A stretch of 64,000 bases of DNA from Candidatus Cloacimonadales bacterium (lineage in GTDB: Bacteria; Cloacimonadota; Cloacimonadia; Cloacimonadales; JAFGVF01). The position numbers and the translations under genes were made by a program. The notes under the pieces are model-generated. The model worked only from the letters and a program-made list of their open reading frames with translations, was not told the DNA's origin and ran no database searches. The stretch spans positions 1,856,001 to 1,920,000 of the forward strand of contig OY782781.1 in NCBI GenBank assembly GCA_963678315.1. The letters run 5' to 3'. Below are positions 6,066 through 58,797 of this stretch, in pieces (position 1 is the stretch's first letter; each line of letters starts with the position of its first letter).

Positions 6066-9000
6066 ATGAAGAAGACTGTCATGTTATTGTTTTGTTTGTT
6101 TTTTATAGTTATGGTTTTTGCGAGTATCAGAGTTGATTTGAAATTACGTTCGGATGATTTCTATGCTGATACTGGAATGGAAATAGGGTATCCAGACCCT
6201 ACTTGGGAGTATAGAGGTGCACTTATGACGGACCGAGGGGACCGTCATTATAAGCATGATAGTAATAACAACTCATACGGTTCTGGTGCATGGTATAATC
6301 AGCCTCTGGAAGTCTTTTATGATTTAAGTGATTTCCTGGTAAACTCCGATAATGTTTATGAATTTGGGTATCTAGGAATAAATTTAATTGGTTGGGAAGA
6401 TGATAATGGTTCTGCTTATAATTATGATGATGGTGATGATAATTTTGAATATGGATGGGAATTTTACAATATTTTTGATTATGAGCAAGGAATATGGCAA
6501 GATATTAATGATGCAGGCTATGTGGATATTGGAAGCCATGCTGACAATAATAAATACAGGATGGAAGTAGATGTCTGGTGGCAGTATACCTTGCCAGGTT
6601 TAATTGAAGGGCAAACTTCTGTAGTAGATGCTAATTCTGTTTTATTAACTAAAACCAATAATAACGATTATCAAATAGATTCTTGGGACTATGAGGTTAG
6701 CTCTGACGATTTTACTAACATTATATATTCAGGCACAAGTAGTGAAGAAAGCCTTGTAATTGATGGAATTGATGCGACTTCAGCTTATTATTTCAGGATT
6801 AGAGGAACAAATAATACTGGAAGTGGAGAATTTAATCAAGTTCCTTGTTACTTACCTTTACCAGGTTTAATTGAAGGGCAAACTTCTATTATAGACATTA
6901 ATACTATTTTACTAACCAAAACTAATAATAACAACTATCAAATAGATTCTTGGGACTATGAGGTCAGCTCTACCGAAGACTTTTCTAATATGTTATATTC
7001 AGGTACAAGTAGTGAAGAAAGCCTTGTAATTGAGAACTGTAACGTATTTGATGACTGTTATTTCAGAATAAGAGGATTAAATTCTTCTGGTTATGGGGCA
7101 TTCAACAATGTTGAATATAATCATCTTGAATATCCTAGCTTTACAGTTGATAAATTAGATAGTAAATCAATAGAAGTAGTATATCAAACAGGATGTGAAC
7201 TTATATCCTCATGGGATTGTCAAGTCTCATCAGATTTAGGTTTTAACGATATTGTGTCTGATGTGAGTTATATTGACGAAAATCAACAAACGATCACTGA
7301 CTTAGATTTTGATTCAATATACTATATTAGAACTAGACCTAGGGATGATCAAGCGCTAGGACCTTGGAGTAGCATTGACTCCATTAAAGTGTTGTGGCAG
7401 GGACAAGGATCTGAAGAGTCTCCTTTCTTAGTTAAGAATATCTATGACTTACAGAATATTGCCTTTAATGTAGATTACTTAGAATCTTCTTATCTACAAA
7501 CTAACGACATTGATGCATCAATAACTAATTCATGGAATGATGGGGCAGGATTTATACCTATAGGAAACTTTTCTGATAAATTTGAAGGCTATTATGATGG
7601 ACAAGGGTTCTCAATTAATAGCTTATATATTAATAGGGATGGTGATGAGATTGGATTATTCGCCTGGGCATCAAACTGCACTCTTACTAACATAAATTTG
7701 CTAGATGTAAATATTACAGGTATAGATAAAGTGGCATCATTAGTAGCTTTTATTACTTATTCTGATGTCACAGACTGTAATGTTAATGGGAGTGTCAGCG
7801 GAAATTCTTTCACAGGAGCTTTAGCTGCCTATCTAGTCGATGTTTGCATGGTAGATTGCTCCTCAAGTGTTGATATAGAGGCAAGTGGGCAACATAGTGG
7901 TGGTCTGGGAAAAATATTATATTCAACAGTCTCGAATTGTAATTTCTCTGGTAATATTGTTGGGCAATCTTGTACTGGAGGCTTTGCTGGGACAGTAGCA
8001 AGTTGTAACATTGACTCTTGTTATACAGAATGTCTTGTTACTGGAACTTCACATGTAGGAGGCTTTGCTGGAATAATTGATCACCACAATTCAGATCTAC
8101 AATACACAGTAAGCAACTGCTACTCAAATTCAGTCACGACTGGCAATACAAGCATTGGGGGCTTTGTTGGTTATTGTGCTGGTGGGAATAGTATAGAAAA
8201 TTGTTATGCTACTGGAACTTTAAGTGCAGATGATTATTATGGAGGATTTGCTGGAAAAACTGCATCCTGTATAATATATAATAGCTACACTTCGGTTGAA
8301 ATGCAAAATAGTAATGGTGATGACCATGGCTTTATAGGATATATTCGATATGACTATGACCCTGTTTTAGAGAACAATTTTTATTCCATAGAAGAAACAG
8401 GACAGAATGAAGCTCTCGGAGCTAGTGGCTTAACATTAGTGCAGATGCATAATCCATTAACCTTTATTAATGCTGGTTGGGATTACCTTGATGAGAGTGA
8501 AAACGGAAGTAATAGTATATGGGCTTTTGAACCTTACCAAAATCCTAGACTTTCTTTCGAAGATGCAGCTTTCATAACAGATTATGATTTAATTCCAAAC
8601 CAAGTAGAATATGAAGTTAATAAGCTAGATAATACTTCTATATCAATAGAATTAAGTGACTCTCATGGCTATGAAGTGACTAACTGGGACTATCAAATTA
8701 GTAGCGACACACTGTTTAATAATATAATTGCTTTGGGTAACTCTAGTGAGGAATCAATACTTGTAGAAAACCTACCTGCTCTAAATGAAACAGAATATTA
8801 TTGTTACCGCTTTAATTCTAAGAATGACTATGGGGAAAGTGGTTTTTCTGATGTTGTCTTTGCAATTCCTAATAATGTTGAGGCTTCTTTATCAAGTCTT
8901 GAAAACGGAGATATAAGAATAGAAAGAATAGTAGCAGGCAATTATCGGATTGATGGATGGGAGTATGAAATAGCTAGAAACATAACCTTTGATGATATCA

Positions 9001-10889
9001 TTGTAGCCGGTTCATCTACAAGTGTTTATATAGACGTAGATAATTTACCGGAACTAAATGAAGATGAATATTATAGCTGTAGGATTAGATGTTTTAACGA
9101 AAGTGGTATGGGGGAATATTCTCAAGCTGTCTATTTTGTTCCTCAAGAGTTAGAAGTAAAGATGTATGAAGTAGAGTCAAGTTCTCTTAAAATTCTAGTA
9201 GAATCAACAAACAATTATAAAGTTGATCAAGTTGAATATCAATTGAGTCTCGATAGTTCTTTTAGCAATATTATCTATTCTACAACAAGTATATCTAATC
9301 AAATAATAGTTGAAGATATTGATGTAAATAATAGATATTACCTAAGATATAAGTCCAGCAATACTTATGGAGAAAGTGATTTCTATCAAAGTCACTACGC
9401 TTTACCAGCAGATATTGAATCCCATATTGCAATTGTAGATGATAACAATCTAAGAATAAACATTACTGATAAGAATGATTTTAGACTTACTTCTTGGGAT
9501 TATCAACTTAGCTTAGATGAAGCTTTTACTTCCATTGTTGCTCAACAAACAGCTATAAATGATAGCACGGTTCTTGTTGAAGGAATTGATGCTAGTCAGT
9601 ATTATTATTCTAGAATAATTACTCGAAATGAAGATGGTCAAAGTGACTACCAAAGTTCTAATTATTTAAGCCCATTTGGAGTAGTATTTGATGCGACTGT
9701 AATTGATAGTAATAGCCTTAAGATTGAAAAGATCAATAATAATGGATATTTAGTTACTAGCTGGAATGTGAAATTGTTTTTAAATGGAGAATATGACTCG
9801 GAATATGACGTCAATAATATTAGCGAAAACAGCATTATCATCGAGGATATTAATACTGATTCAGACTTGATAGTTTATACTCAATGCAAGAATGAAGACA
9901 ATGAATCCAATTGGGAATTAAGCAATCATCTGATACCTAATGTTTTCATTAACTATAAGATTAGAACAGATGATTTTTATGCAAATGTCTCTGTGGAAAT
10001 AGGTAACCCAGACCCAACTTGGACTTATGATTGTAGTTTTGGAGATGGTGTCTGGTTAGGTGAAAATGTATGCCATGATAATGGTAGTCATTTCTATGGT
10101 TCAGGTGCTTGGTATGAACAAGATCTTAATGAAGTATGGTCAGGAAGCCAACTTATTGATGATACCTCGCTATTCTTAAAGTTGAGTTGCTGGGAAGACG
10201 ATAGAGGCAGTGAAACTAGCTATGATGATGGTGATGATGACTATGTTGTGGGACTTGTTCAAATCGATGATATACTAAGTTATAATCCATTTGAATGGAA
10301 CAGAATTGCTGAAGATAATGAGACTTACTTAGATGTTGGTAGTGTACAAGCAAATAATTATTATAGAATAGAATTTGATTATTACTGGGAATATACTATC
10401 CCTTCTAACTATATTGCATCAATAAATGCAACAGATTCTGAAACAATTGTAATTAGTAAGAATGATAGTGGAGAATACAGAGTTTTGGGATGGGACTATC
10501 AACTGAGTACTGATGAGGAATTTTCTAACATTGTTGCAGAAGGAAGTGACTTATCTGGAGATACTTATACTATTTCTAATATAGATACTCAGCAATCTTA
10601 TTACCTCAGATTAAGAGAATATAATGAAACTGGTTATGGTCAATATTGCCTTGCTACATATAGTGGTGAATCAGATATTCCTCTAATGACTCCATCCAAC
10701 ATAGAAATTACTAATAATCAGGGTTCTTGGCATATTAGTTGGGAGCAAATCGATAATGCTAGTCAGTATCTTATTGAGAGTTCATCAGATTTAGTTGATT
10801 GGCAAGAAGAGGGAGTTACTCAAGAAACAAGCTTTACTATTCAAGATGTTAGAAATCAAGCTCGCTTTTTCAGAGTCATAGCTAGATAA
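6066..10889 (+). CDS. Large secreted modular surface protein: duplicated unknown acidic domain, nine FN3-like repeats, GLUG-type region, C-terminal sorting-like domain
   Basis: Signal peptide. Repeats W[DE]Y[EQ][VIL]S...YYFRIR..N..G. GLUG-like GGFAG/GGFVG repeats. Ends YLIESSSDLVDW...RFFRVIAR. Confidence 0.8.
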   Translation: MKKTVMLLFCLFFIVMVFASIRVDLKLRSDDFYADTGMEIGYPDPTWEYRGALMTDRGDRHYKHDSNNNSYGSGAWYNQPLEVFYDLSDFLVNSDNVYEFGYLGINLIGWEDDNGSAYNYDDGDDNFEYGWEFYNIFDYEQGIWQDINDAGYVDIGSHADNNKYRMEVDVWWQYTLPGLIEGQTSVVDANSVLLTKTNNNDYQIDSWDYEVSSDDFTNIIYSGTSSEESLVIDGIDATSAYYFRIRGTNNTGSGEFNQVPCYLPLPGLIEGQTSIIDINTILLTKTNNNNYQIDSWDYEVSSTEDFSNMLYSGTSSEESLVIENCNVFDDCYFRIRGLNSSGYGAFNNVEYNHLEYPSFTVDKLDSKSIEVVYQTGCELISSWDCQVSSDLGFNDIVSDVSYIDENQQTITDLDFDSIYYIRTRPRDDQALGPWSSIDSIKVLWQGQGSEESPFLVKNIYDLQNIAFNVDYLESSYLQTNDIDASITNSWNDGAGFIPIGNFSDKFEGYYDGQGFSINSLYINRDGDEIGLFAWASNCTLTNINLLDVNITGIDKVASLVAFITYSDVTDCNVNGSVSGNSFTGALAAYLVDVCMVDCSSSVDIEASGQHSGGLGKILYSTVSNCNFSGNIVGQSCTGGFAGTVASCNIDSCYTECLVTGTSHVGGFAGIIDHHNSDLQYTVSNCYSNSVTTGNTSIGGFVGYCAGGNSIENCYATGTLSADDYYGGFAGKTASCIIYNSYTSVEMQNSNGDDHGFIGYIRYDYDPVLENNFYSIEETGQNEALGASGLTLVQMHNPLTFINAGWDYLDESENGSNSIWAFEPYQNPRLSFEDAAFITDYDLIPNQVEYEVNKLDNTSISIELSDSHGYEVTNWDYQISSDTLFNNIIALGNSSEESILVENLPALNETEYYCYRFNSKNDYGESGFSDVVFAIPNNVEASLSSLENGDIRIERIVAGNYRIDGWEYEIARNITFDDIIVAGSSTSVYIDVDNLPELNEDEYYSCRIRCFNESGMGEYSQAVYFVPQELEVKMYEVESSSLKILVESTNNYKVDQVEYQLSLDSSFSNIIYSTTSISNQIIVEDIDVNNRYYLRYKSSNTYGESDFYQSHYALPADIESHIAIVDDNNLRINITDKNDFRLTSWDYQLSLDEAFTSIVAQQTAINDSTVLVEGIDASQYYYSRIITRNEDGQSDYQSSNYLSPFGVVFDATVIDSNSLKIEKINNNGYLVTSWNVKLFLNGEYDSEYDVNNISENSIIIEDINTDSDLIVYTQCKNEDNESNWELSNHLIPNVFINYKIRTDDFYANVSVEIGNPDPTWTYDCSFGDGVWLGENVCHDNGSHFYGSGAWYEQDLNEVWSGSQLIDDTSLFLKLSCWEDDRGSETSYDDGDDDYVVGLVQIDDILSYNPFEWNRIAEDNETYLDVGSVQANNYYRIEFDYYWEYTIPSNYIASINATDSETIVISKNDSGEYRVLGWDYQLSTDEEFSNIVAEGSDLSGDTYTISNIDTQQSYYLRLREYNETGYGQYCLATYSGESDIPLMTPSNIEITNNQGSWHISWEQIDNASQYLIESSSDLVDWQEEGVTQETSFTIQDVRNQARFFRVIAR
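6591..7113 (+). repeat. Intragenic tandem duplication, period 267 nt (89 aa)
   Basis: CCAGGTTTAATTGAAGGGCAAACTTCT occurs at 6594 and 6861, with high identity continuing through the units. Confidence 0.9.
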
Positions 10890-17824: not shown

Positions 17825-18193
17825 GTAGCCATCAGTCTAGCCTGACACGGTCCTTGGCTACGAAAAGTTTTGCGTAAGCATGAACAAAGTTCAACCCTAA
17901 CGGGTGGATGCTTACACTCCAGGTTTTCCCAAACGTCTCTACATCCTTACTGGCCTCATTGAAAAATCAGCCTTTTTTCAAAGAGGAAAGTAATGGAGGA
18001 GTTAGGCGTTAGGAGTGAGGGATACTGGAATCGCCAGTCTCCGAGCTAGCTTCACTTATAATCTAATGATGAGTGAATATGTAGAGAAGAATGGTTTTTC
18101 GTTTAACCCTGAAGGGGTGACATATATTAGCATGGGGTCTTGTACCCCATGTTAATAAGGATTATTAAAATCTAGCCCTGAAAGGGCGACATA
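17825..18193. repeat. Palindromic mosaic locus A (modules M6, M1, M2, M3, M4)
   Basis: GTAGCC..GGCTAC at 17825-17861; M1 at 17872-17921; M2 at 17945-17996; M3 at 18024-18058; M4 at 18105-18193. M1-M4 have close matches at the 27 kb and/or 58 kb loci; M6 shares only the GTAG..CTAC pattern. Confidence 0.9.
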
Positions 18194-18297
18194 AAAAGTA
18201 AATTAACTTTTACTTATATAACATATTTTCCTGGATTTAGCTATCAAGGATGAAGCCGTTCCGATTTTGCAGAATAAATCCCTTCAGAATTTAAAAC

Positions 18298-21230: not shown

Positions 21231-21252
21231 TGTTTATGCTAAAATAAATAGG

Positions 21253-22209
21253 TTAGTTATAACCCAACTTATACTTAATATATGATGCAAGTTCTGAATT
21301 AAATAGTATTGAATTATTTTTATCAATTGTAATACGTTCATTAAAATATGAAATAGGCAATTTTTTTTCTTCATTAGAAATAATGTCGTGAACAACAACT
21401 ACTTCATTATTTTTACTCAATATTAGAAAAGCAGTTTCTTGATTGAAATCAACTATCAATGTACCTATACCTTCAGAAGAAGTCTGTAGCTCAGTGTAAT
21501 CATTAATTGTTGAGTTGAAAACAAACATAATCTTGCCAACTTTAAGTACATTATTTTTGTTTAAATTGATTGTAAAACGTTGCTCTTCACTTTTGCATAA
21601 AATATTATAAACTTCATCACTGTTATCAGTACATGAAATTATGTTACCATTTACATTATCTTTAAAGTCGACTAGGTAATTACAACTTGCTGAAGTCTCC
21701 ATTGTGATGCTCTCGGGTTTTCTGTATCTACTGTCATGATGTCTCTTTGAAGGGATATCTTTTGTGGAAATTAAATCATCTTCAACAGTTTCTTCTATAA
21801 TAGGGCAAGGCTCATCTGATTTAATTTGATGTCTTGGTTTAAGTGAAACTGATATAAATCCTGGTTCTAATGATAGTCCCGAACCTGAAATTGCATCGAT
21901 AAGAATTCCTCCAATACCACCCCAGATTATGTTTCCTAAAATAATTGCATCGGCTTGTGGCTTAATCTCTAAGTAAGTATTGCGATAACCTTCTTTTGAT
22001 ATAATAACATCATAAGACTTCTTTCTAAGCAAATTGAATGTGCTAGGTGTTTTTGCTTCATAATAATCATTATTTGATTTAACTACTACTTTAGCGTCTT
22101 CAGGTGTTGATCTAATCGTAACGTTTTGACGATTTCCACGAGTAATTGTAGCACAAGCAACAGTTGATAAAATAAATATAATGAAAACTAATAATTTGAA
22201 TAGTCTCAT
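21253..22209 (-). CDS. Lipoprotein with N-terminal PEGA-like domain and unknown C-terminal region
   Basis: Lipobox TVAC. CATI..G..Q.V.I.STP..A.V, KTP, ISKEGY, GN...GG..G..ID..SG pattern. Confidence 0.65.
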   Translation of the reverse strand: MRLFKLLVFIIFILSTVACATITRGNRQNVTIRSTPEDAKVVVKSNNDYYEAKTPSTFNLLRKKSYDVIISKEGYRNTYLEIKPQADAIILGNIIWGGIGGILIDAISGSGLSLEPGFISVSLKPRHQIKSDEPCPIIEETVEDDLISTKDIPSKRHHDSRYRKPESITMETSASCNYLVDFKDNVNGNIISCTDNSDEVYNILCKSEEQRFTINLNKNNVLKVGKIMFVFNSTINDYTELQTSSEGIGTLIVDFNQETAFLILSKNNEVVVVHDIISNEEKKLPISYFNERITIDKNNSILFNSELASYIKYKLGYN

Positions 22210-22475
22210 AAATCCTCCCTTTGATGATACTAGTTAAAGAATAAGATTTTGTTTCGTCAAGTTAAAAAAGTAAATGTGGCAGAAAATAATATTATAATAA
22301 AAGTTATAAACTTAAAACAAATCAAGTAATATTTATAAAACTATGTTGAATAATTATATATCTAATAAAGTTAATGTAAAATATACTTTGATGTTAATAA
22401 ATAGTTAAGAAAACTCTTGTAAATATATGCAAATAGATTAATTTGTAGGAAAATATTATTAAGATAGGAGAATTA

Positions 22476-25906: not shown

Positions 25907-27013
25907 ATGTTCAAAAAGTTGATTATTAGTTTGGTTATGTTGGCAGCATTAATTTCTATTTCTGCAACAAATTACTTTTTCTTAGATGATGAAGTTTTCG
26001 ATGCAAGGTCAGCAAGTATGGGAAATACAAGTCTTCTTTCAACTAGGGGGAGTAATGCCCTTTTTACAAATCCGGGACTCTTAATTGATTATGACAATCT
26101 AGATTTAAAAGTCACGGGCCGTGGACGCTATCATAATACTGAAGATAAGGGATATTACAATGATAAAGAGATTGTTGAAACAGATATGTGCTTCGGATCT
26201 CTTGCGCTAAGTAAATCTATTACAACAGATTTCAGCAAGATTGCTTTTGGCCTTGGAGTAAATAGGCTCAAAAACTTTAAATATGAAACAGTCGATGGTT
26301 ATAAGGAAAAGGGTGCATTAAACATGCTTGCCTTGGGCATTGGTATTGATTATAAAGGTGTGCTAGACATTGGTCTTGCTTATAATAAAAGCTTTGCCAG
26401 TGATACAGAAATGTTTGCTTCAAGTGATATGGCTGATATAGAAGCTGAATATTTACTATTCTCTTTAAACGTAAATATTGAAAATATTACATTAGCTTTA
26501 AGTTATAAAGATAAGTATGAACTTAAACCAGAAGAGAACTTAGAAGAATGGGGAGGTGTTGAATTTCCTGCTGAATTGAAGCTAGGACTTTCTGTAGATG
26601 TAGATTCTAGATTGTCCTTATATGGTGAAGTTATGCAAAAGAAGATGTCTGATTATAAATGGCTTGAAGGTGGATTTAAACCTTTTAAGGCTTATGATGA
26701 TATTTATGATTTTGGATTTGGTATGGAATACTCCACTTATTATGATTTAAGACTAGGGATATTTAGAAAAGCTGTAGATCGTTTTAGCGATGTTGATGAA
26801 GAATTTCTATACCAATATGGTTATACTTTAGGATATGGAGCTGAACTGATTGATAACTTTACATTGGATTTATACTTTCAAAATTCATTCTTAAATGATG
26901 ACTCTGTTCGTGATGCTTGGGATGGTACTGGAGAGAATTTTGAAGAAAAGACTGAATTAGATAATTTATATATTAATTTTGGCCTTACTTTAGGTTATCA
27001 ATTTGATATGTAA
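25907..27013 (+). CDS. Outer-membrane beta-barrel, FadL/PorV-like
   Basis: Signal peptide, ARSASMG...ALFTNPGLL motif, alternating beta-strands, C-terminal LGYQF. Confidence 0.7.
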   Translation: MFKKLIISLVMLAALISISATNYFFLDDEVFDARSASMGNTSLLSTRGSNALFTNPGLLIDYDNLDLKVTGRGRYHNTEDKGYYNDKEIVETDMCFGSLALSKSITTDFSKIAFGLGVNRLKNFKYETVDGYKEKGALNMLALGIGIDYKGVLDIGLAYNKSFASDTEMFASSDMADIEAEYLLFSLNVNIENITLALSYKDKYELKPEENLEEWGGVEFPAELKLGLSVDVDSRLSLYGEVMQKKMSDYKWLEGGFKPFKAYDDIYDFGFGMEYSTYYDLRLGIFRKAVDRFSDVDEEFLYQYGYTLGYGAELIDNFTLDLYFQNSFLNDDSVRDAWDGTGENFEEKTELDNLYINFGLTLGYQFDM

Positions 27014-27046: not shown

Positions 27047-27084
27047 GAACCTTCAAGGACTAAGTCCTTTGAAGGTTCTTTTTT
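27047..27084 (+). terminator. Intrinsic terminator
   Basis: GAACCTTCAAGGAC-TAA-GTCCTTTGAAGGTTC followed by T6. Confidence 0.85.
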
Positions 27085-27100
27085 ATTGCCAATAGCAAGA

Positions 27101-27860
27101 GATACTTGACCCTTACTTGCCTCTTTGAAAAAAAGCCGATTTTTCAATGAGACCCTTAAGGAAGGAGTTAGCAGTGAGGAACGGCTGTTCCTCTAAATTA
27201 AAAAAGAAGGAAGAGAATTGAACTCCATTTTATCGCCCATGGTTAAAACCATGGGCTCTTTACTGATTTACCCTTACAGGGCATAAATACCTTTATGTCC
27301 CTTGGGGACATATCACCACAAAGCCCATGATTTCAATCGTGGGTGATGTGATAATTGATAAGAATGTTCAAGAGTTTAGAAGTTTGTTTGTTTAGATGTT
27401 CTGGAGTTGGATATGTGAATATTGGTGATATTCGTGGCTAAATAGTTATAGATTGATAATGAAAAGTGGATGAATTTTAGTCCCAAAGGGACGACATATA
27501 TTAGCATGGGGTCTTGCACCCCATGTACAATGACAAAAATGATTTTAGTCCCAAAGGGACGACATAGATTTTAGTCCGGTGCAGATAGATTCTGAATTGA
27601 TGATTGATGATTTGATGATGGAGTGTAAGCATCCACCGATAGGCTGAACATACTTCATGTTCACGCAAAGTAAAGTGTTTTATCGTAGTTGTTTAATGTA
27701 TTGTATTGTAGGGGTGTGATGCTCACACACTGGGCGTATGCCATACTCATACTCCTACGAGGTTAATGTATTGCTGATGTTTTACAGCTAGAAGCTTGAG
27801 TACCAAACAATGATGGAGTGAAAGCATCAGGCGTTAAATTGAAGGAACTTCATGCTCACA
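27101..27860 (+). repeat. Palindromic mosaic locus B (M2, linker, M5, M4, M1, GTAG-REP doublet, degenerate M1)
   Basis: M2 at 27111-27161; M5 at 27235-27343; M4 at 27479-27566; M1 at 27619-27666 and 27814-27860; GTAG..CTAC at 27708-27758. Segment 27101-27666 is an inverted homologue of 58185-58797. Confidence 0.92.
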
Positions 27861-34707: not shown

Positions 34708-34769
34708 GTATTAATATAGTATGAAGATATATATTCTTTATACATTTACACTTAAATATTCAAGGAAAT

Positions 34770-34853
34770 CAAGCATCTTGCTTGGCATAATTCTGGGAAG
34801 GCAAGCAAGCATCTTGCTGGACACAATACTGGGAAGGCAAGCATCTTGCTTGC
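34770..34853 (+). repeat. Three tandem copies of palindrome GCAAGCATCTTGCTTGC (module M7)
   Basis: Copies at 34770, 34805 and 34837; the last two are preceded by CTGGGAAG. Confidence 0.85.
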
Positions 34854-34967
34854 TATAAGCTTTGTTAATATTTCTTTAATAGGCAATGTTTTTTCTTGAC
34901 ACTTAAGAATTAGGCAATATTCTTTTAATGAGAAAGAATTTTAATAAATAAAATATAGGGAGTTAGT

Positions 34968-36458
34968 ATGAAAAAGTTTCTACTAATGTTTTTAGTATTA
35001 TTGCCTGTTTTACTTGTATCTCAGGAAGATACGAATGATGGTTTTCAGATGGGTGGTTCCGCAGGTGCTATGACTATTAATGGTGAGACATACACCAGAA
35101 TTAGATTAAATCCTGAATTTGTTTTTTGGAAATTTGGTGTTGGCTTAGATTTTGACCTTCTTATTACAGGAGAAGGAGATTTAAGAGAAGAGGATTGGGA
35201 TGATCCAGAAGATTACATAAACAAGATTTTATATATTCGTTATGGTCATAGAGGTGATCCATTTTATGCTAAAGTTGGTAGCATGAAATCTTACACTCTT
35301 GCTAATGGTCTTATAATGAGTGGTTATTCAAATATGCTACAATATCCAGATGTTAGAAAGATAGGCGGTTATTTTGGTATTAATACTGAAATAAGCGGAT
35401 TGGGTTTAGAAGTCTTTGATGCTGATTTTGCAGAAAATGATATTTTTGCAGGAAGAGTTTTCTTGGACCCATTCCAAGTAACACAAGCACCATTATTTAA
35501 AAACTTACAATTAGGTGCATCATTTGCTATAGATACTGACCAATATAATAGATTTAATGATGAAGATGGAGATAATGTACCTGACATCTTTGATGCTTTT
35601 GAAGATGATTCTAATTATTCAGTAGATACTGATGGTGATGGAATTCCTGATGAAGAAGATATTGATGCTGATGGTGATAATTTAATTGATAATCCTGATG
35701 ATGGTACTGAATGGTGGGGGCAATTACCTGAATCTTATCAAGATAATGATGGCGTAAATCTTGATAAAGCTAGTAAGTATGATGCTGAAGATGAAGTTGT
35801 TATCTTTGGTCTAGATTATACATTACCTATTATTGATGAAGAGTATTTAAAGCTATATCATTATTCTGAATATGCAAAAATTCTTGATTATGGTCAAGGT
35901 GTAATATTCCCTGGTTTTGGTGCTAAAATTGCTATTTTTGATTTCAAACTTGAAGGTAGAAGATTTGAAGATGAATTTATACCTGGATATTTCGATTATC
36001 AATATGATACTCAAAGATCTTATGTGTCTGGCGATACAATCATAACAAAGGAATCTATACTTGAAGAAGTAAAGGCTTCAACAGGTTGGTATGGTTCTGT
36101 AACAGCTAATATAGCAAATGTTATATATTTTGATTTAGCTTATCAAGATATGTATGGTGATGATGTTACAACAGGTAAATCTTTATGGGCTGGCTTACGT
36201 GCAGATACAAGTATGATACCTAAAATTAAAGAAGCATCAATTGAATATTCTCAAACAAACAAAAGATATATAAACTTTTCAGAATTTAGAAATCCTAATG
36301 CTGTAGTTAATGGCAAGATTTCTTATGAGTTAAGTCCATCTTCTTTCTTAGTTGGTAATTATAAAGAACGCTATACAGATATAAATAATGATGGTAAAAT
36401 CAAAGGTACAGATGAAATTGAAAAAACCTTTGGTTTTGGAGTAGAATTTAACTTCTAA
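34968..36458 (+). CDS. Outer-membrane beta-barrel-like protein with inserted Ca-binding DxDxDG repeats
   Basis: Signal peptide, C-terminal FGVEFNF, acidic DEDGDNVPD/DTDGDGIPD/DADGDNLID repeats. Confidence 0.7.
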   Translation: MKKFLLMFLVLLPVLLVSQEDTNDGFQMGGSAGAMTINGETYTRIRLNPEFVFWKFGVGLDFDLLITGEGDLREEDWDDPEDYINKILYIRYGHRGDPFYAKVGSMKSYTLANGLIMSGYSNMLQYPDVRKIGGYFGINTEISGLGLEVFDADFAENDIFAGRVFLDPFQVTQAPLFKNLQLGASFAIDTDQYNRFNDEDGDNVPDIFDAFEDDSNYSVDTDGDGIPDEEDIDADGDNLIDNPDDGTEWWGQLPESYQDNDGVNLDKASKYDAEDEVVIFGLDYTLPIIDEEYLKLYHYSEYAKILDYGQGVIFPGFGAKIAIFDFKLEGRRFEDEFIPGYFDYQYDTQRSYVSGDTIITKESILEEVKASTGWYGSVTANIANVIYFDLAYQDMYGDDVTTGKSLWAGLRADTSMIPKIKEASIEYSQTNKRYINFSEFRNPNAVVNGKISYELSPSSFLVGNYKERYTDINNDGKIKGTDEIEKTFGFGVEFNF

Positions 36459-55409: not shown

Positions 55410-55462
55410 CGTAAGCATGAAGTTTCTTAAACTTCAACCTATCGGTGGATGCTTACAGTCCA
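55410..55462. repeat. Solo copy of palindromic module M1
   Basis: CGTAAGCATGAAGTTTCTTAAACTTCAACCTATCGGTGGATGCTTACAGTCCA, nearly identical to 58392-58444. Confidence 0.9.
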
Positions 55463-55633: not shown

Positions 55634-58108
55634 ATGAAGTTAATTAAATTAACCTTATTGGCTATGTTTTTTTTATTGTTTTGTTTTGGACTTTATGCTG
55701 AAGGAACAGCACCACAAGGATTAGGAACTTCCGAAAATCCTTATCAAATTGCAAACTTAGAAAATTTACGCTGGCTTTCCACAACCCTTTCTGCTTGGGG
55801 AGCTGAAGATAATCTAGTTTATTATATCCAAACAGAAGATATCGATGCTACAGATACCAGAAATTGGAATGGTGGAGCTGGATTCTCGCCTATCGGGGAT
55901 TATTTAGATTATTCTCCAACAAGAAAATTTATCGGTTCCTATGATGGTCAAAATCACACTATCTCAAACCTCTATATTAATAGATCTAACCAACCTTATA
56001 TTGGCCTTTTTGGATTTATAAAAACAGGAACAATCTCTAATTTAGGCATTATAGACAATATGACAACTGGTAGCACTTATGTAGGGGGATTGGTGGGTCA
56101 TTGTTTTTGGGAATCTACAATCGAAAACTCTTATTCGACAGGACGTGTTTCGGGCTTTAGCAATGTAGGAGGCTTGGTCGGATACTGTGATAGCACTACC
56201 ATATCATATACTTGTGCTACAGGAAGTGTTTCTGGCAATAGCAATGTAGGCGGATTAGTGGGTTATGTTTTTGATTCCACCATATCAAATGCTTATGCTA
56301 CAGGAAGTGTTTTTGGTGAAGTTAATTTTGTAGGAGGCTTGGTTGGAGTCTGTGATAACTCAACGATATCATATACTTATGCCACCGGAAGTGTTTCTAG
56401 CACCGGAAATGGAGCTGTAGGCGGATTGGTGGGAGCAAAATCAATTGTTGCCTTTGTGAACAATTCTTTTTGGGATATTTACACAACTGGTCAAACAGTG
56501 TCAGATGGTGGAAGTGGCTTGCCAACCGAACAAATGACAGATGCAACAGCATATTTACTCGCTGGTTGGGACTTTGTAGGGCCAGCAGATGGACAGAATG
56601 AAGATATTTGGGGCATTCATTCAATAGCTAATGGTGGTTATCCATTCTTGATGTGGCAATTTCAATCTATTATGGATATAAGTGATAGAATTGTTATCGG
56701 TGAAAATGATGTTACGTCACATACTTTTGGTTATACCCAAGTCACAGTAGAAATGTTAGAAAATCATCCAGAAATTACTCTTGATGTTACTCTATACACT
56801 CAAGCACCAAATGTTGTAAATGATGTTTTACCTCCACATGTAACAACATTACTTCCCGTATTTTGGGATGTAGATAGTAACGGTGTAGAAGGCTATAGTT
56901 ACAATTTCACTTTTGATTTAACTGAATTTGAAGATTTAGCTGAAGGAAGTAATTTTGCAGTTCTTAAAAGAGATAGTGCAATGGATGAGTGGAAAGATGT
57001 TTTAGCTTTAGGAGCATCTTTTGAAATAGTTGGTAATCAAGCTATTGTTTCAGGACTTGATTCTTTCTGTCAATTTGCAGTAGGTAACGCAATTGAAGCT
57101 ACTCCGGTAGAAGAAAATCATAGTGACCCTCTTGAATTCCCTCAATCAGGTGTAGAAATAGAGTTTCCTAGTAATAACCCAGCACTTACTTTGGAAGTAA
57201 TTCTGATAGAAAGCACACCAACAATAGTTAATGGATCTTTACCTACTTCAGTTAATAAGCTTTGCTCTAATCACTGGCAAGTAAATTGTAATGGTGTAGC
57301 TGTTTATAACATTACTTTTGATATGACAGGTTTCCCTGAATTAGAAAGCTATAATAACTTTAGAATTCTCAAAAGAGAAGATAATAAAGAAGAATGGATT
57401 GATGTAATAACCCTTGGTGGAATTGTGACTCGCAATGGAAATAAAATTACAGTTTCTGGCTTAGATTCATTCTCTCAATTTGTTCCTGCTTATGATGAAA
57501 ATGATACCCTTCCTGTAACCCTTTCTTCTTTCAATGCTGTAGCCTACTCTGATGAATATGTATCAATCAACTGGGTAACAGAATCAGAATCAAATCTTTT
57601 AGGCTTCAATGTGCTTAGAGCTGAAACTGAGAATGTAGAAAACTCTGTAAGAGTTAACAGCTCAATGATTGCTCCAAATAATACAGGACAAACATCTAGT
57701 TATTCATTTGTAGATGATGAAGTATCAGCAGGAAGATACTACTACTGGTTAGAAACAAGAGAACTCTCTAATGAAGTTCAGCTTAGTCACGCCTTTATGG
57801 TTGAGGTAAAAGCTGGAGATGATAGTCCACAACTACCAACAGAAACTCTTTTAGGTAATCCTTACCCATCACCATTTGCTGGAAATACTCAAGCTGATTT
57901 AAGAGTTAAAGAAGGTGAAACAGCTAGTGTAACAGTATATAACCTATTAGGACAAGTAGTGAAGAGAGAAAGCTTCTCAGCTGGTAATCATACTTTCGAA
58001 TGGAATGGTAATGATTCAAAAGGAAACAGGACAGCTAATGGCATCTATTTCTTTAGAATGACTACTCCATCACAAACAAAATCTTATAAGGTTCTAAAAT
58101 TGAAATAA
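55634..58108 (+). CDS. Secreted GLUG-repeat protein with two internal repeats, LPVTL domain and FlgD-Ig/T9SS type-A-like C-terminal domain
   Basis: Signal peptide, VGGLVG repeats, TLPVTLSSF...WVTESESN, PYPSPF...YNLLGQ...WNGND...ANGIYF...KVLKLK. Confidence 0.85.
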   Translation: MKLIKLTLLAMFFLLFCFGLYAEGTAPQGLGTSENPYQIANLENLRWLSTTLSAWGAEDNLVYYIQTEDIDATDTRNWNGGAGFSPIGDYLDYSPTRKFIGSYDGQNHTISNLYINRSNQPYIGLFGFIKTGTISNLGIIDNMTTGSTYVGGLVGHCFWESTIENSYSTGRVSGFSNVGGLVGYCDSTTISYTCATGSVSGNSNVGGLVGYVFDSTISNAYATGSVFGEVNFVGGLVGVCDNSTISYTYATGSVSSTGNGAVGGLVGAKSIVAFVNNSFWDIYTTGQTVSDGGSGLPTEQMTDATAYLLAGWDFVGPADGQNEDIWGIHSIANGGYPFLMWQFQSIMDISDRIVIGENDVTSHTFGYTQVTVEMLENHPEITLDVTLYTQAPNVVNDVLPPHVTTLLPVFWDVDSNGVEGYSYNFTFDLTEFEDLAEGSNFAVLKRDSAMDEWKDVLALGASFEIVGNQAIVSGLDSFCQFAVGNAIEATPVEENHSDPLEFPQSGVEIEFPSNNPALTLEVILIESTPTIVNGSLPTSVNKLCSNHWQVNCNGVAVYNITFDMTGFPELESYNNFRILKREDNKEEWIDVITLGGIVTRNGNKITVSGLDSFSQFVPAYDENDTLPVTLSSFNAVAYSDEYVSINWVTESESNLLGFNVLRAETENVENSVRVNSSMIAPNNTGQTSSYSFVDDEVSAGRYYYWLETRELSNEVQLSHAFMVEVKAGDDSPQLPTETLLGNPYPSPFAGNTQADLRVKEGETASVTVYNLLGQVVKRESFSAGNHTFEWNGNDSKGNRTANGIYFFRMTTPSQTKSYKVLKLK

Positions 58109-58184: not shown

Positions 58185-58797
58185 TGTAAGCATGACTTTT
58201 TCTTGCTCTTCAATCTAGCTATCTATGCTTACACTCCATTATTCTCAATTCTGAATCCGTCTGAACTGTGCTGCAAATCTATATCGTCCCTTCGGGACTC
58301 AAACCACTTATATCATTCTACATGGGGTGCAAGACCCCATGCTAATACATGACACCCCTTTGGGGTTAATACATGACTCCAGTATTGCCAGCGTAAGCAT
58401 AAAGTTTCTTAATCTTCAACCTATCAGTGGATGCTTACACTCCATTATCAATTCATCCTCGCATCCCCTACGATTGAAATCATGGGCTCAGAAAAGATAT
58501 GTCCCCAAGGGACATAAATGAATTTATACCCTGTAAGGGTTAATCAATAAAGAGCCCATGGTTTTAACCATGGGTGATAAAATGGAGATCAATTATCTTT
58601 ATTCTTTTTTTTATTTAGAAGTACAGCCGTTAGTGTTTACAAATTCACTTATAACTAACAAACGTTCTAAGTGAAGCCAGCGCGGAGGCTGGCGATCCCA
58701 GTTTGTCCAATGGCGTTCCCAGTCACTCCTAACTCCTTCCTTAAGGGTCTCATTGAAAAATCGGCTTTTTTTCAAGGAGGCAAGTAAGGGTCGGGTA
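58185..58797 (-). repeat. Palindromic mosaic locus C, inverted homologue of locus B
   Basis: M1 at 58185-58238 and 58391-58444; M4 at 58280-58367; M5 at 58466-58575; M3 at 58668-58702; M2 at 58739-58789. Confidence 0.92.

Follow-up and report, generated by a model that had tools for sequence, protein, structure and literature searches.

REP and REPIN repeats and their RAYT (TnpA-REP) proteins form the REPtrons of E. coli, Pseudomonas and Stenotrophomonas (PMC2817692, PMC3116915, PMC3333891, PMC3686654, PMC6006769). In the published pattern every REP family is paired with one tnpAREP gene, which lies between copies of that family (PMC6006769). The palindrome of a canonical REP has at its foot a conserved 5' tetranucleotide, GT[AG]G (PMC3686654, PMC6006769), and the survey of Pseudomonas and Stenotrophomonas gives a maximum of four RAYTs per genome (PMC3686654). 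Among the related enzymes, those of IS200/IS605 subclass 1.1 have the Y motif Y[IV]ENQ and occur as several near-identical whole-element copies per genome, and TnpA-Y1 subclass 1.2 (Quentin, Siguier, Chandler and Fichant 2018) is published as lacking REPs (PMC6006769). Intergenic palindromic units may also be joined by short non-palindromic linkers in recurring orders, as in the bacterial interspersed mosaic elements (BIMEs) of enterobacteria (PMC2817692, PMC3333891).

The window considered here is a 64-kb stretch of DNA from a genome of 2.99 Mb belonging to Cloacimonadota, whereas the known REPtron hosts are Proteobacteria. It contains two related arrays of hairpin modules, called B and C below, which an earlier note had taken for an undescribed system. 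Genomes with more than one REP family, REPtrons and mosaic BIMEs have all been published (PMC6006769, PMC3686654, PMC2817692), and the arrays are a rich example of this known kind of selfish DNA rather than a new system, because for most of the families the genome encodes a small transposase of single-strand DNA that belongs to that family. B and C are probably two copies of a REP/BIME-like mosaic array whose modules are mobilised in trans by cognate Y1 enzymes.

Array layout and module families

The features of the window are as follows, the modules of each array being given in the order in which its own strand reads.

Array B
27110..27168, plus strand: M2 (nhmmer profile, 61.2 bits)
27179..27234, plus strand: LK1 (nhmmer profile)
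27236..27346, plus strand: M5 (nhmmer profile)
27360..27441, plus strand: UNQ (nhmmer profile)
27474..27571, plus strand: M4 unit, M4b/M4/M4b (nhmmer; Rfam match)
27573..27614, plus strand: LK2, between M4b and M1 (nhmmer)
27619..27667, plus strand: M1 (nhmmer profile)
27669-27800, plus strand: B2, continuing the array (nhmmer)
27814-27859, plus strand: second M1 (repeat search and nhmmer)
Array C
58732..58790, minus strand: M2 (nhmmer profile, 62.2 bits)
58640..58708, minus strand: M3, with none in B (nhmmer profile and B/C alignment)
58576..58631, minus strand: LK1 (nhmmer profile)
58464..58574, minus strand: M5 (nhmmer profile, 94.9 bits)
58391..58444, minus strand: M1, with none at the corresponding position of B (repeat search, alignment and nhmmer)
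58367-58319, minus strand: M4 (nhmmer; M4 and M4b span 58275..58367)
58303-58275, minus strand: M4b (nhmmer)
58186..58240, minus strand: degenerate terminal M1, aligning with the M1 of B (repeat search, 60% identity to the reference copy; no nhmmer profile match)
Other copies
17843..18274: third mosaic array, F15, M1 (minus), M2 (plus), M3 (plus), M4 (plus), F25 (minus) (profile mapping)
55410..55462, minus strand: solitary M1 (repeat search and nhmmer)

B (27110-27859, plus strand) and C (58186-58790, minus strand) are colinear mosaics of common hairpin modules, with whole modules present in one and absent from the other. The inverted second copy described in the earlier note is therefore real, and nhmmer profile mapping, from which the order of modules was taken, reproduces the order given there; a third array lies at 17843-18274. 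Array B does not end at 27666 as had been stated, continuing instead with B2 and the second M1, and its supposedly unique segment belongs to the repeat family UNQ, which has 21 nhmmer hits and also accompanies M4 at the side of one of the Y1 genes (genome position 1107162-1107614). Three long inverted-repeat arms connect the two arrays (152 nt at 88%, 95 nt at 85% and 82 nt at 93% identity), and their colinear alignment runs to 693 columns with a mean column identity of 80%, the differences being cassette-sized gaps. Pairwise alignment also confirms that the pair of B and C linkers quoted earlier is homologous.

Each module is a family found throughout the genome, so the arrays are not a product of chance. 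By iterated BLAST and profile searches (an earlier count of 13-mers had been dominated by AT-rich low-complexity words) there are 126 loci of M1, 125 of M2, 136 of M3, 87 of M4 and 83 of M5. The linkers and minor segments are rarer. LK1 is non-palindromic and has 12 copies genome-wide, with M5 on one side in 11 and M3 on the other in 10; B2 has 7 nhmmer hits; LK2 has two, locus B and genome position 2075666, its counterpart in locus C being matched in pairwise alignment only and not by nhmmer.

The mosaic is built from several unrelated hairpin families, as had been proposed. M1 is a hairpin module of 49 nt whose ends are sharply defined and whose flanks are not conserved. M2 is a long palindrome of 59 nt, with two 22-nt arms, a 7-nt loop and a heptamer-like tail. 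M3 combines the motif ACTGGGAnCGC with a CCAGC..GCTGG hairpin and a second hairpin, and the M4 unit consists of a small hairpin, a 12-nt linker and a large hairpin, followed by a second small hairpin (M4b). M5 is 111 nt long with four hairpins, and 25 of its 83 loci cover at least 80% of the model. All five fold as DNA better than shuffled sequences (z of -5.95 for M5, -4.54 for M4, -2.99 for M3, -2.65 for M2 and -2.48 for M1), whereas the linkers fold no better than theirs (z of -0.24 for LK1, and -0.47 and -0.75).

In being intergenic, present in tens to hundreds of copies and divided among several families, these repeats resemble those of REPtrons. They differ from REPs in size, with modules of up to 111 nt and up to four hairpins. 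The resemblance to BIMEs lies in the combination of intergenic palindromic units, short non-palindromic linkers and recurring orders, but a BIME is described as one related REP family in alternating orientation at regular spacing (PMC2817692, PMC3333891), whereas here unrelated families stand in one orientation at irregular spacing.

Y1 transposase genes and their flanking repeats

The earlier note found no nuclease gene in the window, and a Pfam search for Y1_Tnp agrees. Nine Y1 (HUH) genes lie elsewhere in the genome, all single-copy and all matching Pfam Y1_Tnp above the cut-off. Every translation has the HxH and C-terminal Tyr motifs and every frame is open. The highest nucleotide identity between any two is 69%, and there are therefore no IS-like duplicates; gene duplicates have been defined as pairs of more than 95% identity (PMC5581495), and by that measure all nine are single-copy. 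Nine also exceeds the four RAYTs that are the maximum of the published survey (PMC3686654).

Three of the genes encode short proteins of 150-153 aa, in which alignment shows an invariant H-x-H, WQxGYGAF and a YIxNQxxHH ending. These are of the IS200 type, since two of the three were scanned against NCBIfam IS200 (NF033573) and scored 70.3 and 63 bits against a cut-off of 55, and one aligns with IS608 TnpA (E 1.2e-8). Unlike members of subclass 1.1, the three genes are only 60-69% identical to one another and carry the Y motif YIxNQxxHH. They resemble subclass 1.2, which is published with DH[IV]H, WQ and Y---Q--HH in a protein of about 148 aa, in their DHIH/NHIH, WQ and Y---Q--HH motifs, in length, and in being few and of low identity to one another, an assignment made by motif and not by the authors' profiles or tree. 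The six longer proteins (173-184 aa from the first ATG) have PNHVHVLI and a C-terminal YI(R/Q)(N/E)N and are RAYT-like. The best NCBIfam match of the two tested was REP_Tyr_transpos (NF047646) at 64.5 and 62.3 bits, which is below the cut-off of 80. Homologues of these proteins carry the JGI name 'REP element-mobilizing transposase RayT', and a phmmer search of solved structures gave a single weak match (2f4f, E 0.003).

Four of the five main families, M1, M3, M4 and M5, have a Y1 gene of their own with family copies on both sides. Two and three copies of M1 surround the gene at 1121495-1122016, agreeing with the window copy at 43-44 of 49-50 aligned positions, and of these five, which lie at 1121332-1122137, three are letter-identical. 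The M3 core is found in seven and four copies, inverted, around the gene at 1115148-1115669 (best copies 28/30), and M4 in three and three, also inverted, around that at 1107162-1107614, where identities are 25-41 of 33-47 positions, or 38-41 of 46-47 for unbroken copies. Around the gene at 599366-599818 there are two and three tandem copies of M5, with 93-95 of 111-112 positions identical. Each of the other five genes likewise has a hairpin unit of its own on both sides. Asking whether every Y1 gene is flanked by a single module family, as the earlier note had suggested, thus gives a positive answer: all nine are flanked by their own hairpin repeat, and for seven this repeat is dispersed. The commonest flanking 16-mer has 27-70 genome copies for these seven, whereas 300 genes taken at random have a median of 3; since 23% of random genes also reach at least 20 copies, this criterion on its own is a weak one in this genome. 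For the remaining two genes (795932-796486 and 1125718-1126245) the flanking repeat has only 3-5 copies.

A single-copy Y1 HUH gene lying between copies of its own family, with no near-identical duplicate, is the arrangement of a REPtron, and the apparent puzzle of hairpin arrays without a nuclease is resolved by nucleases encoded one per family at 0.17 to 1.3 Mb from the window. The tie to HUH/Y1 nucleases acting in trans, suggested earlier, gains support from these flanks. The details differ from those of described REPs. The 5' GT[AG]G at the hairpin foot is absent from all the flanking units inspected. Instead the units read ACTGGGAACGC followed by the hairpin at three genes and GGAACGC followed by the hairpin at one; overall, the units of four of the six RAYT-like genes have (ACT)GGGAACGC beside the hairpin, those of one have only GGAACGC, and M1, whose flanking unit reads TTTGCGTAAGCAT..., has neither. 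M4 and M5 are two-hairpin units. M1 and M5 also flank their genes in direct orientation and not, as in REPtrons, inverted. Each of the three subclass-1.2-like genes stands beside a dispersed family with a core of large hairpin, linker and small hairpin (M4, M5 and a 252-nt relative), unlike the published members of that subclass.

M2 is the exception, with no cognate gene found among the nine. It has two 22-nt inverted arms, separated by 7 nt in 110 of 118 arm pairs, it shows no replication-strand bias (65 vs 60 copies), and an element of IS21 type is found within the cluster of Y1 genes. Together these features could mean that M2, and possibly other modules, is a MITE of a cut-and-paste DDE insertion sequence and not a Y1 substrate, so that the arrays would mix two unrelated mobilisation systems. 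REPIN-type inverted doublets have the same appearance, however, and no M2 arm pairs lie 41-3000 nt apart and none encloses an open reading frame; there is therefore no autonomous parent in this genome, and for this genome the idea that M2 forms the termini of some larger element is rejected. We regard this origin as improbable, though the best of the alternatives, and prefer to see M2 as part of the same REP/BIME-like array.

Orientation and growth of the arrays

Module orientation was compared with the direction of replication, with strands set from GC skew (minimum near 0.75 Mb, maximum near 2.0 Mb). M1 and M3 are biased, with 94 of 126 and 99 of 136 copies on the favoured strand, or 52 of 81 (p 0.014) and 60 of 86 (p 0.0003) when independent clusters are counted. 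The bias is weak for M4 (37/59 clusters, p 0.067), and neither M5 nor M2 has one. Against co-directional flanking genes the orientations are close to even (27 vs 41 for M1, 34 vs 31 for M3, 24 vs 16 for M4, 21 vs 20 for M5 and 35 vs 34 for M2), and copies occupy convergent, divergent and co-directional gaps alike. That M1 and M3 follow the replication strand and not gene direction fits insertion as single-stranded DNA.

The modules cluster in 235 arrays, of which 110 have at least two core families and 24 at least four. Within one array there can be as many as five core families, most of the modules sharing an orientation and lying 2-116 nt apart. Their polarity is clearest at M2: on its tail side a core module lies within 120 nt in 62 of 125 copies, and 60 of the 62 agree in orientation, whereas on the head side only 16 of 125 have a core module as close. 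Such strict polarity offers a way to study how Y1 enzymes choose their targets. In addition, 19 of 46 M3 copies have a heptamer-like motif within 24 nt upstream, compared with 0.8% of random intergenic 26-mers. A similar arrangement was reportedly described by Elhai and co-workers in Genome Research in 2008 for filamentous cyanobacteria, whose small dispersed repeats sit inside tandem repeats of heptamers, and where several very small mobile families are said to be piled into shared intergenic sites with tandem heptamers. We know of no cognate enzyme assigned to those repeats, whereas four of the families here have an evident cognate Y1 gene.

We suggest that each hairpin module would be a small non-autonomous DNA element that folds when DNA is single-stranded, and that its cognate Y1 (HUH) tyrosine transposase, the gene for which lies elsewhere in the genome, would cut and join it in trans. 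M1 and M3 would be served by the RAYT-like (class 2) genes, and M4 and M5 by the IS200-like genes with the subclass-1.2 motif signature. We infer that these enzymes cleave and move the modules and that at the fork they act on DNA in single-stranded form, and the exact target site is likewise inferred. Arrays might then grow by two routes. Modules could insert in a fixed orientation beside existing ones, above all behind the heptamer tail of M2, and short multi-module blocks (LK1-M5, perhaps M3-LK1-M5) could be copied as units. Evidence for the second route comes from the M5 copies in LK1 blocks, which form a subfamily (permutation p 0.0055). M2 copies adjoining these blocks resemble one another no more closely than M2 copies drawn at random (p 0.54), and the whole M2-to-M5 composite moving as one unit is therefore rejected for M2. 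Of the earlier proposal that the scaffold spread as a unit, what stands is the LK1-M5 part, a block that seems, from its conserved adjacency and the shared subfamily, to spread as one.

It could also be argued that the modules are immobile relics with domesticated Y1 genes, and that B and C are alike only through segmental duplication or gene conversion. The low-copy linkers LK1 and LK2 are common to both arrays, and multi-module stretches must therefore have been copied, which single-module insertion would not do; in addition, copies have diverged (about 80% mean identity for M2, 67-78% for M5), and RAYTs are described as domesticated, single-copy and vertically inherited (PMC5581495). Recombination does not, however, produce the polarity behind M2 or the replication-strand bias, the Y1 frames remain open with their catalytic motifs retained, and the gene-flanking copies are near-identical tandems. 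Contigs of related strains also combine modules differently, for example M2 directly with M1 or M5 with M1, though these joints may come from other arrays. An entirely static origin therefore appears quite unlikely to us, and mobilisation in trans of REP/BIME-like modules remains the preferred account.

Acido-Lenti-1 and wider implications

M4 corresponds to Rfam RF01687, Acido-Lenti-1 (Weinberg et al. 2010), which is classed as a probable small-RNA gene (PMC2864571). The covariance match is end to end at two sites in the window, 27479-27525 (43.4 bits) and 18105-18151 (38.8 bits), both on the minus strand and above the gathering threshold of 37; the M4 of locus C, at 34.9 bits, stays below it. 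The earlier note had allowed that the units might match a known Rfam entry, and this proves true of one unit, M4. There are 30 RF01687 matches in this genome at a per-genome E-value limit of 0.001. The M4 copies flanking the Y1 gene give no match to the model at E of 0.01 or less; their linker is 1 nt longer, and they are linked to M4 by nhmmer profile alone. Elsewhere in the phylum, 30 genomes were examined around their best subclass-1.2-like Y1 gene, and in 10 of them that gene has Acido-Lenti-1 matches no more than 1.5 kb away; in relatives, a search for dnaA synteny at the Y1 genes that Acido-Lenti-1 flanks gave no match. Among the titles listed for literature mentioning Acido-Lenti-1, none links it to REPs or transposases. 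What Rfam and the original description (PMC2864571) treat as a probable small-RNA gene behaves here as a dispersed DNA repeat flanking a Y1 gene.

Stem pairing in these families appears to be maintained. Covariation was scored on the fold of the consensus, since RNAalifold with DNA parameters gave no structure, and compensatory changes were found in 5 of 14 stem pairs of M4 (54 distinct copies) and 4 of 17 of M1. The asymmetry of G:T against A:C mismatches, which would otherwise bear on the strand that folds, comes mainly from a single fixed T:G position in M1 and from an M4 subfamily that is misaligned.

The arrays might accordingly be read as structured non-coding RNAs, with M4 a true Acido-Lenti-1 small RNA, the other modules RNA hairpins (stabilisers, terminators or protein-binding sites) and the composite a modular RNA, as the earlier note had also considered; the Rfam entry, the compensatory changes, the folding well beyond shuffled sequences and the secondary roles in mRNA turnover and termination reported for REPs elsewhere (PMC3479197, PMC3733652) would suit it, but module orientation is independent of flanking-gene direction with every type of gap occupied, each family has 83-136 loci, stacked in tandem or nested, in a genome of 3 Mb, the same units stand on either side of Y1 genes here and in other genomes, and compensatory changes are equally expected of a hairpin read as single-stranded DNA, which together make an RNA function very unlikely.

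On the account of modules mobilised in trans, the results extend the REP/RAYT principle to an uncultured lineage outside Proteobacteria. They also give a testable function to two orphans, Acido-Lenti-1, unexplained since 2010, and Y1 subclass 1.2, published in 2018 without partner DNA. Combining the observations leads to a broader reading, which we offer tentatively and consider doubtful as a whole: at least seven working Y1/hairpin pairs of two enzyme classes would coexist in one small genome and share a polar insertion grammar, in which all modules enter in one orientation behind the heptamer tail of the orphan palindrome M2; blocks of the M3-LK1-M5 type, whose ends belong to different families, would move as larger units; and Acido-Lenti-1 would be the DNA recognition element of TnpA-Y1 subclass 1.2, not an RNA gene.

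The nearest genomes compared belong to another genus, with about 75% gene identity, and only the gene downstream of locus B can be aligned; the modules are nearly absent from them by blastn. In three sequencing runs of near-identical strains the contigs stop at the array borders (near 17846-17853 and 27131-27137), without any of them spanning an array. A practical consequence is that the arrays break short-read assemblies of this organism.

Architecture and census of the arrays

Both strands were read for window positions 27101-27666 and 58185-58797. A repeat search gave three long inverted-repeat arms between locus B and locus C (152 nt at 88%, 95 nt at 85% and 82 nt at 93%), and B (+) and C (-) stay colinear across an alignment of 693 columns with a mean identity of 80%, the differences being gaps of entire cassettes. 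Profile mapping of both loci reproduced the module order given in an earlier note; the part of array B delimited there stands, but the array runs on to 27859. In the features below M1-M5 are five core hairpin module families, LK1 and LK2 linkers, M4b the small hairpin of the M4 unit, 'UNQ' a segment first read as unique and B2 a further segment of array B.

27110-27859 (+): locus B; M2, LK1, M5, 'UNQ', M4 with two M4b, LK2, M1, B2, second M1 (profile mapping)
58186-58790 (-): locus C; M2, M3, LK1, M5, M1, M4, M4b (profile mapping), then a degenerate M1 (repeat search only)
17843-18274: third array
55410-55462: lone M1

The array element is real and non-random. DNA folding of the modules is better than that of shuffled controls (z -2.5 to -6.0), and the linkers fold no better than such controls. 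Arrays have a G+C content of 36-40% vs 32.8% for the genome, a single contig of 2,988,751 bp in which the window is G000:C1:1856001-1920000. A census of the whole genome was made with iterated nhmmer profiles, counting loci without overlap.

Table. Core module families in the genome (nhmmer): loci; loci at ≥80% of model
M1: 126; 123
M2: 125; 123
M3: 136; 87
M4: 87; 87
M5: 83; 25

LK1 has 12 copies and LK2 two nhmmer matches, locus B and genome position 2075666, while the supposedly unique segment of B has 21 nhmmer matches and so is repeated. A de novo sweep of the genome added approximately 20 families, and iterated BLAST marked 330-400 arrays, about 100-120 kb in all. At least two core families occur in 110 of the 235 core-family arrays and at least four in 24, which include all three window arrays; M2 and M3 share 59 arrays vs about 5 expected under independent placement, a rough estimate from approximately 2,100 intergenic gaps.

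Contigs of near-identical strains end at the arrays. Elsewhere in the window, contigs of three runs holding such strains skip 1042 bp (21240-22283), which correspond to a PEGA-domain gene at 21253-22209 (-), a gene-sized presence/absence difference among strains. At 27047-27087, directly after the stop of gene 25907-27013 and ahead of array B, a perfect hairpin poor in GC leads into a T run (GAACCTTCAAGGAC...GTCCTTTGAAGGTTC TTTTTT) and looks like the terminator of that gene. Another small hairpin family, outside M1-M5, lies at 34762-34865 as three tandem 32-36-nt units, each with a AAGCATCTTGCTT-type hairpin, before the gene at 34968. Directly upstream of locus C, the product of gene 55634-58108 combines GLUG motifs with a type IX secretion C-terminal domain, and the gene contains tandem repeats of 81-84 nt that stay in frame (56069-56433). 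A 1607-aa ORF at 6066-10889 contains long direct repeats internally, of 119 nt (at 6591, 6858 and 9402), along with 59-70-nt units.

Y1 transposase genes and their flanking repeats

Pfam Y1_Tnp has nine matches in the genome, all above cut-off and none in the window, which bears out the earlier note that the window holds no nuclease gene. Group A comprises three genes of 150-153 aa sharing D/NHIHIL, WQxGYGAF and YIxNQxxHH; both of the proteins tested (2 of 3) pass NCBIfam IS200, and one protein aligns to IS608 TnpA (E 1.2e-8). In the six group B genes (173-184 aa counted from the first ATG) the motifs are PNHVHVLI and, at the C-terminus, YI(R/Q)(N/E)N; among NCBIfam families REP_Tyr_transpos scores best, at 62-64 bits, below the cut-off of 80. 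Homologues of group B, some from Cloacimonadota MAGs, are called 'REP element-mobilizing transposase RayT' by JGI. All nine genes have a hairpin unit of their own on both sides.

Table. Y1 genes (genome positions) and flanking units
1121495-1122016: M1, 2 + 3 copies, same orientation
1115148-1115669: M3 core, 7 + 4 copies, inverted
1107162-1107614: M4, 3 + 3 copies, inverted
599366-599818: M5, 2 + 3 copies
1104220-1104672: 252-nt multi-hairpin M5 relative, 3 copies on one side, ~1.3 on the other
1110286-1110825: ACTGGGAACGCT plus hairpin, inverted
795932-796486: GGAACGC plus hairpin, 1 + 2 copies, inverted
1688155-1688670: 156-nt unit, 4 + 1 copies
1125718-1126245: 153-nt unit, 3 + 2 copies

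The commonest 16-mer flanking a Y1 gene has 27-70 copies in the case of seven genes and 3-5 in the other two; random genes (n = 300) have a median of 3, yet 23% reach at least 20. Any two Y1 genes have at most 69% nucleotide identity. M2 has no partner Y1 gene in the genome; its arms lie 6-7 nt apart in 110 of 118 arm pairs, and no M2 arm pairs 41-3000 nt apart were found genome-wide.

Judged from sequence, the element is best read as a REP/BIME-type mosaic that would be served by cognate Y1 transposases, and is ordinary in kind. The Y1 genes with their flanking repeats correspond, on gene and repeat placement, to the REPtron pattern, in which each REP family has one tnpAREP gene that it flanks, several families being possible per genome. 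PMC6006769 already describes this pattern, so the novel system proposed earlier is not one in kind. The differences from known REP/RAYT systems are that the modules lack a GT[AG]G foot and are multi-hairpin, the arrays obey a polar grammar, two enzyme classes are drawn on and the host is outside Proteobacteria. There are also nine Y1 genes here, whereas PMC3686654 found at most four RAYTs per genome in Pseudomonas and Stenotrophomonas.

Six of the nine genes lie within 22 kb (G000:C1:1104220-1126245; loci L038 and L039), one per intergenic gap, two of them bracketing dnaA (1105056-1106402). An IS21-type istA/istB pair lies in the same region (1112580-1114801). The cluster is approximately 350 kb from the GC-skew minimum and so is not obviously the origin.

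Orientation, polarity and block copying

GC skew forms a clean V, with its minimum at about 0.75 Mb and maximum at about 2.0 Mb. Orientation relative to the replication strand was counted by copies and by clusters separated by >1.5 kb.

Table. Orientation vs replication strand: copies; clusters
M1: 94/126; 52/81, p 0.014
M3: 99/136; 60/86, p 0.0003
M4: 58/87; 37/59, p 0.067

Neither M5 nor M2 has a replication-strand bias by either count, and relative to co-directional flanking genes all five families split nearly evenly. The bias fits a single-strand mechanism because IS200/IS605 Y1 enzymes use the lagging-strand template (PMC6006769). An RNA role for the modules tied to neighbouring transcripts does not fit, since a replication-strand bias with near-even orientation to gene direction disagrees with it.

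The arrays are polar. A core module lies within 120 nt on the tail side of 62 of 125 M2 copies, in the same direction in 60 of the 62 (M3 38/38, M1 11/11, M4 10/10), while the head side has a neighbour in only 16 of 125. To the right of M2 (window 27160-27178 and genome-wide) are GGAGTTA/GGAGTGA-like heptamer tracts of variable length that precede M3 and M1. The ends of M1 are sharp, its flanks are not conserved and its first bases (GGAGTGT) are in phase with the tracts. Of 46 M3 copies, 19 have a GGAGT[GT]A-like heptamer in the 24 nt upstream, vs 0.8% of random intergenic 26-mers. From such placement we infer that modules would insert in an oriented manner, on the 3' side of a short target supplied by the heptamer tract.

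M2, heptamers, M3 (or M1), LK1 and M5 are common to seven loci with unrelated outer flanks, and three tandem M3-LK1-M5 units lie directly before the window. Within LK1 blocks, M5 copies resemble one another more than random M5 sets do (0.782 vs 0.673, permutation p 0.0055) and M3 copies only slightly more (0.864 vs 0.841, p 0.14), while M2 beside LK1 blocks has no extra likeness (0.793 vs 0.800, p 0.54). The proposal that the scaffold spread as a unit therefore holds for LK1-M5, perhaps with M3, as a copied block, and fails for M2; the placing of LK1-M5 next to M2 probably comes from modules having landed repeatedly at sites of one kind.

Acido-Lenti-1 and Y1 subclass 1.2

M4 scores above gathering for Rfam RF01687, the Acido-Lenti-1 RNA motif, at two window sites. 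Weinberg et al. 2010 (PMC2864571) list the motif as a probable sRNA, and a 2026 preprint gives its function as still unknown. Among 21 related genomes RF01687 has matches in 14 and Y1 in 18. In six relatives chosen from these listings for a Y1 place near an RF01687 place, the motif lies within approximately 0.5 kb of a group-A-like gene in all six and on both sides in four; the G002 locus has two more copies about 1.6-1.9 kb from the gene. In the relatives examined, dnaA is not a neighbour of the Acido-Lenti-1-flanked Y1 genes.

The group-A-like family occurs in 91 of 151 sampled genomes (E ≤1e-20). In an unselected sample of 30 genomes belonging to the phylum, each represented by its best such locus, RF01687 (E ≤0.01) lies within ±1.5 kb in 10/30, and in 5/24 of the previously unexamined loci; by chance a 3.4-kb locus would hold it approximately 9% of the time at the highest density seen (56 matches/2.2 Mb), a rough upper bound. 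The model has no match at E ≤0.01 on this genome's own M4-flanked Y1 locus, where the linker of the flanking copies is longer by 1 nt and only an nhmmer profile ties them to M4.

By its motif signature group A fits the published TnpA-Y1 subclass 1.2. PMC6006769 gives REP 'no' for this subclass, whereas hairpin repeats flank all three group A genes here, the class being assigned by motif only. The M4 and Y1 findings support a re-reading of the Rfam orphan Acido-Lenti-1. Rfam and Wikipedia describe this motif as lying near group II introns. In G013, an Acido-Lenti-1-flanked Y1 gene directly adjoins an RF00029 match (L033:1254-1330, 63.6 bits), which is a group II intron domain.
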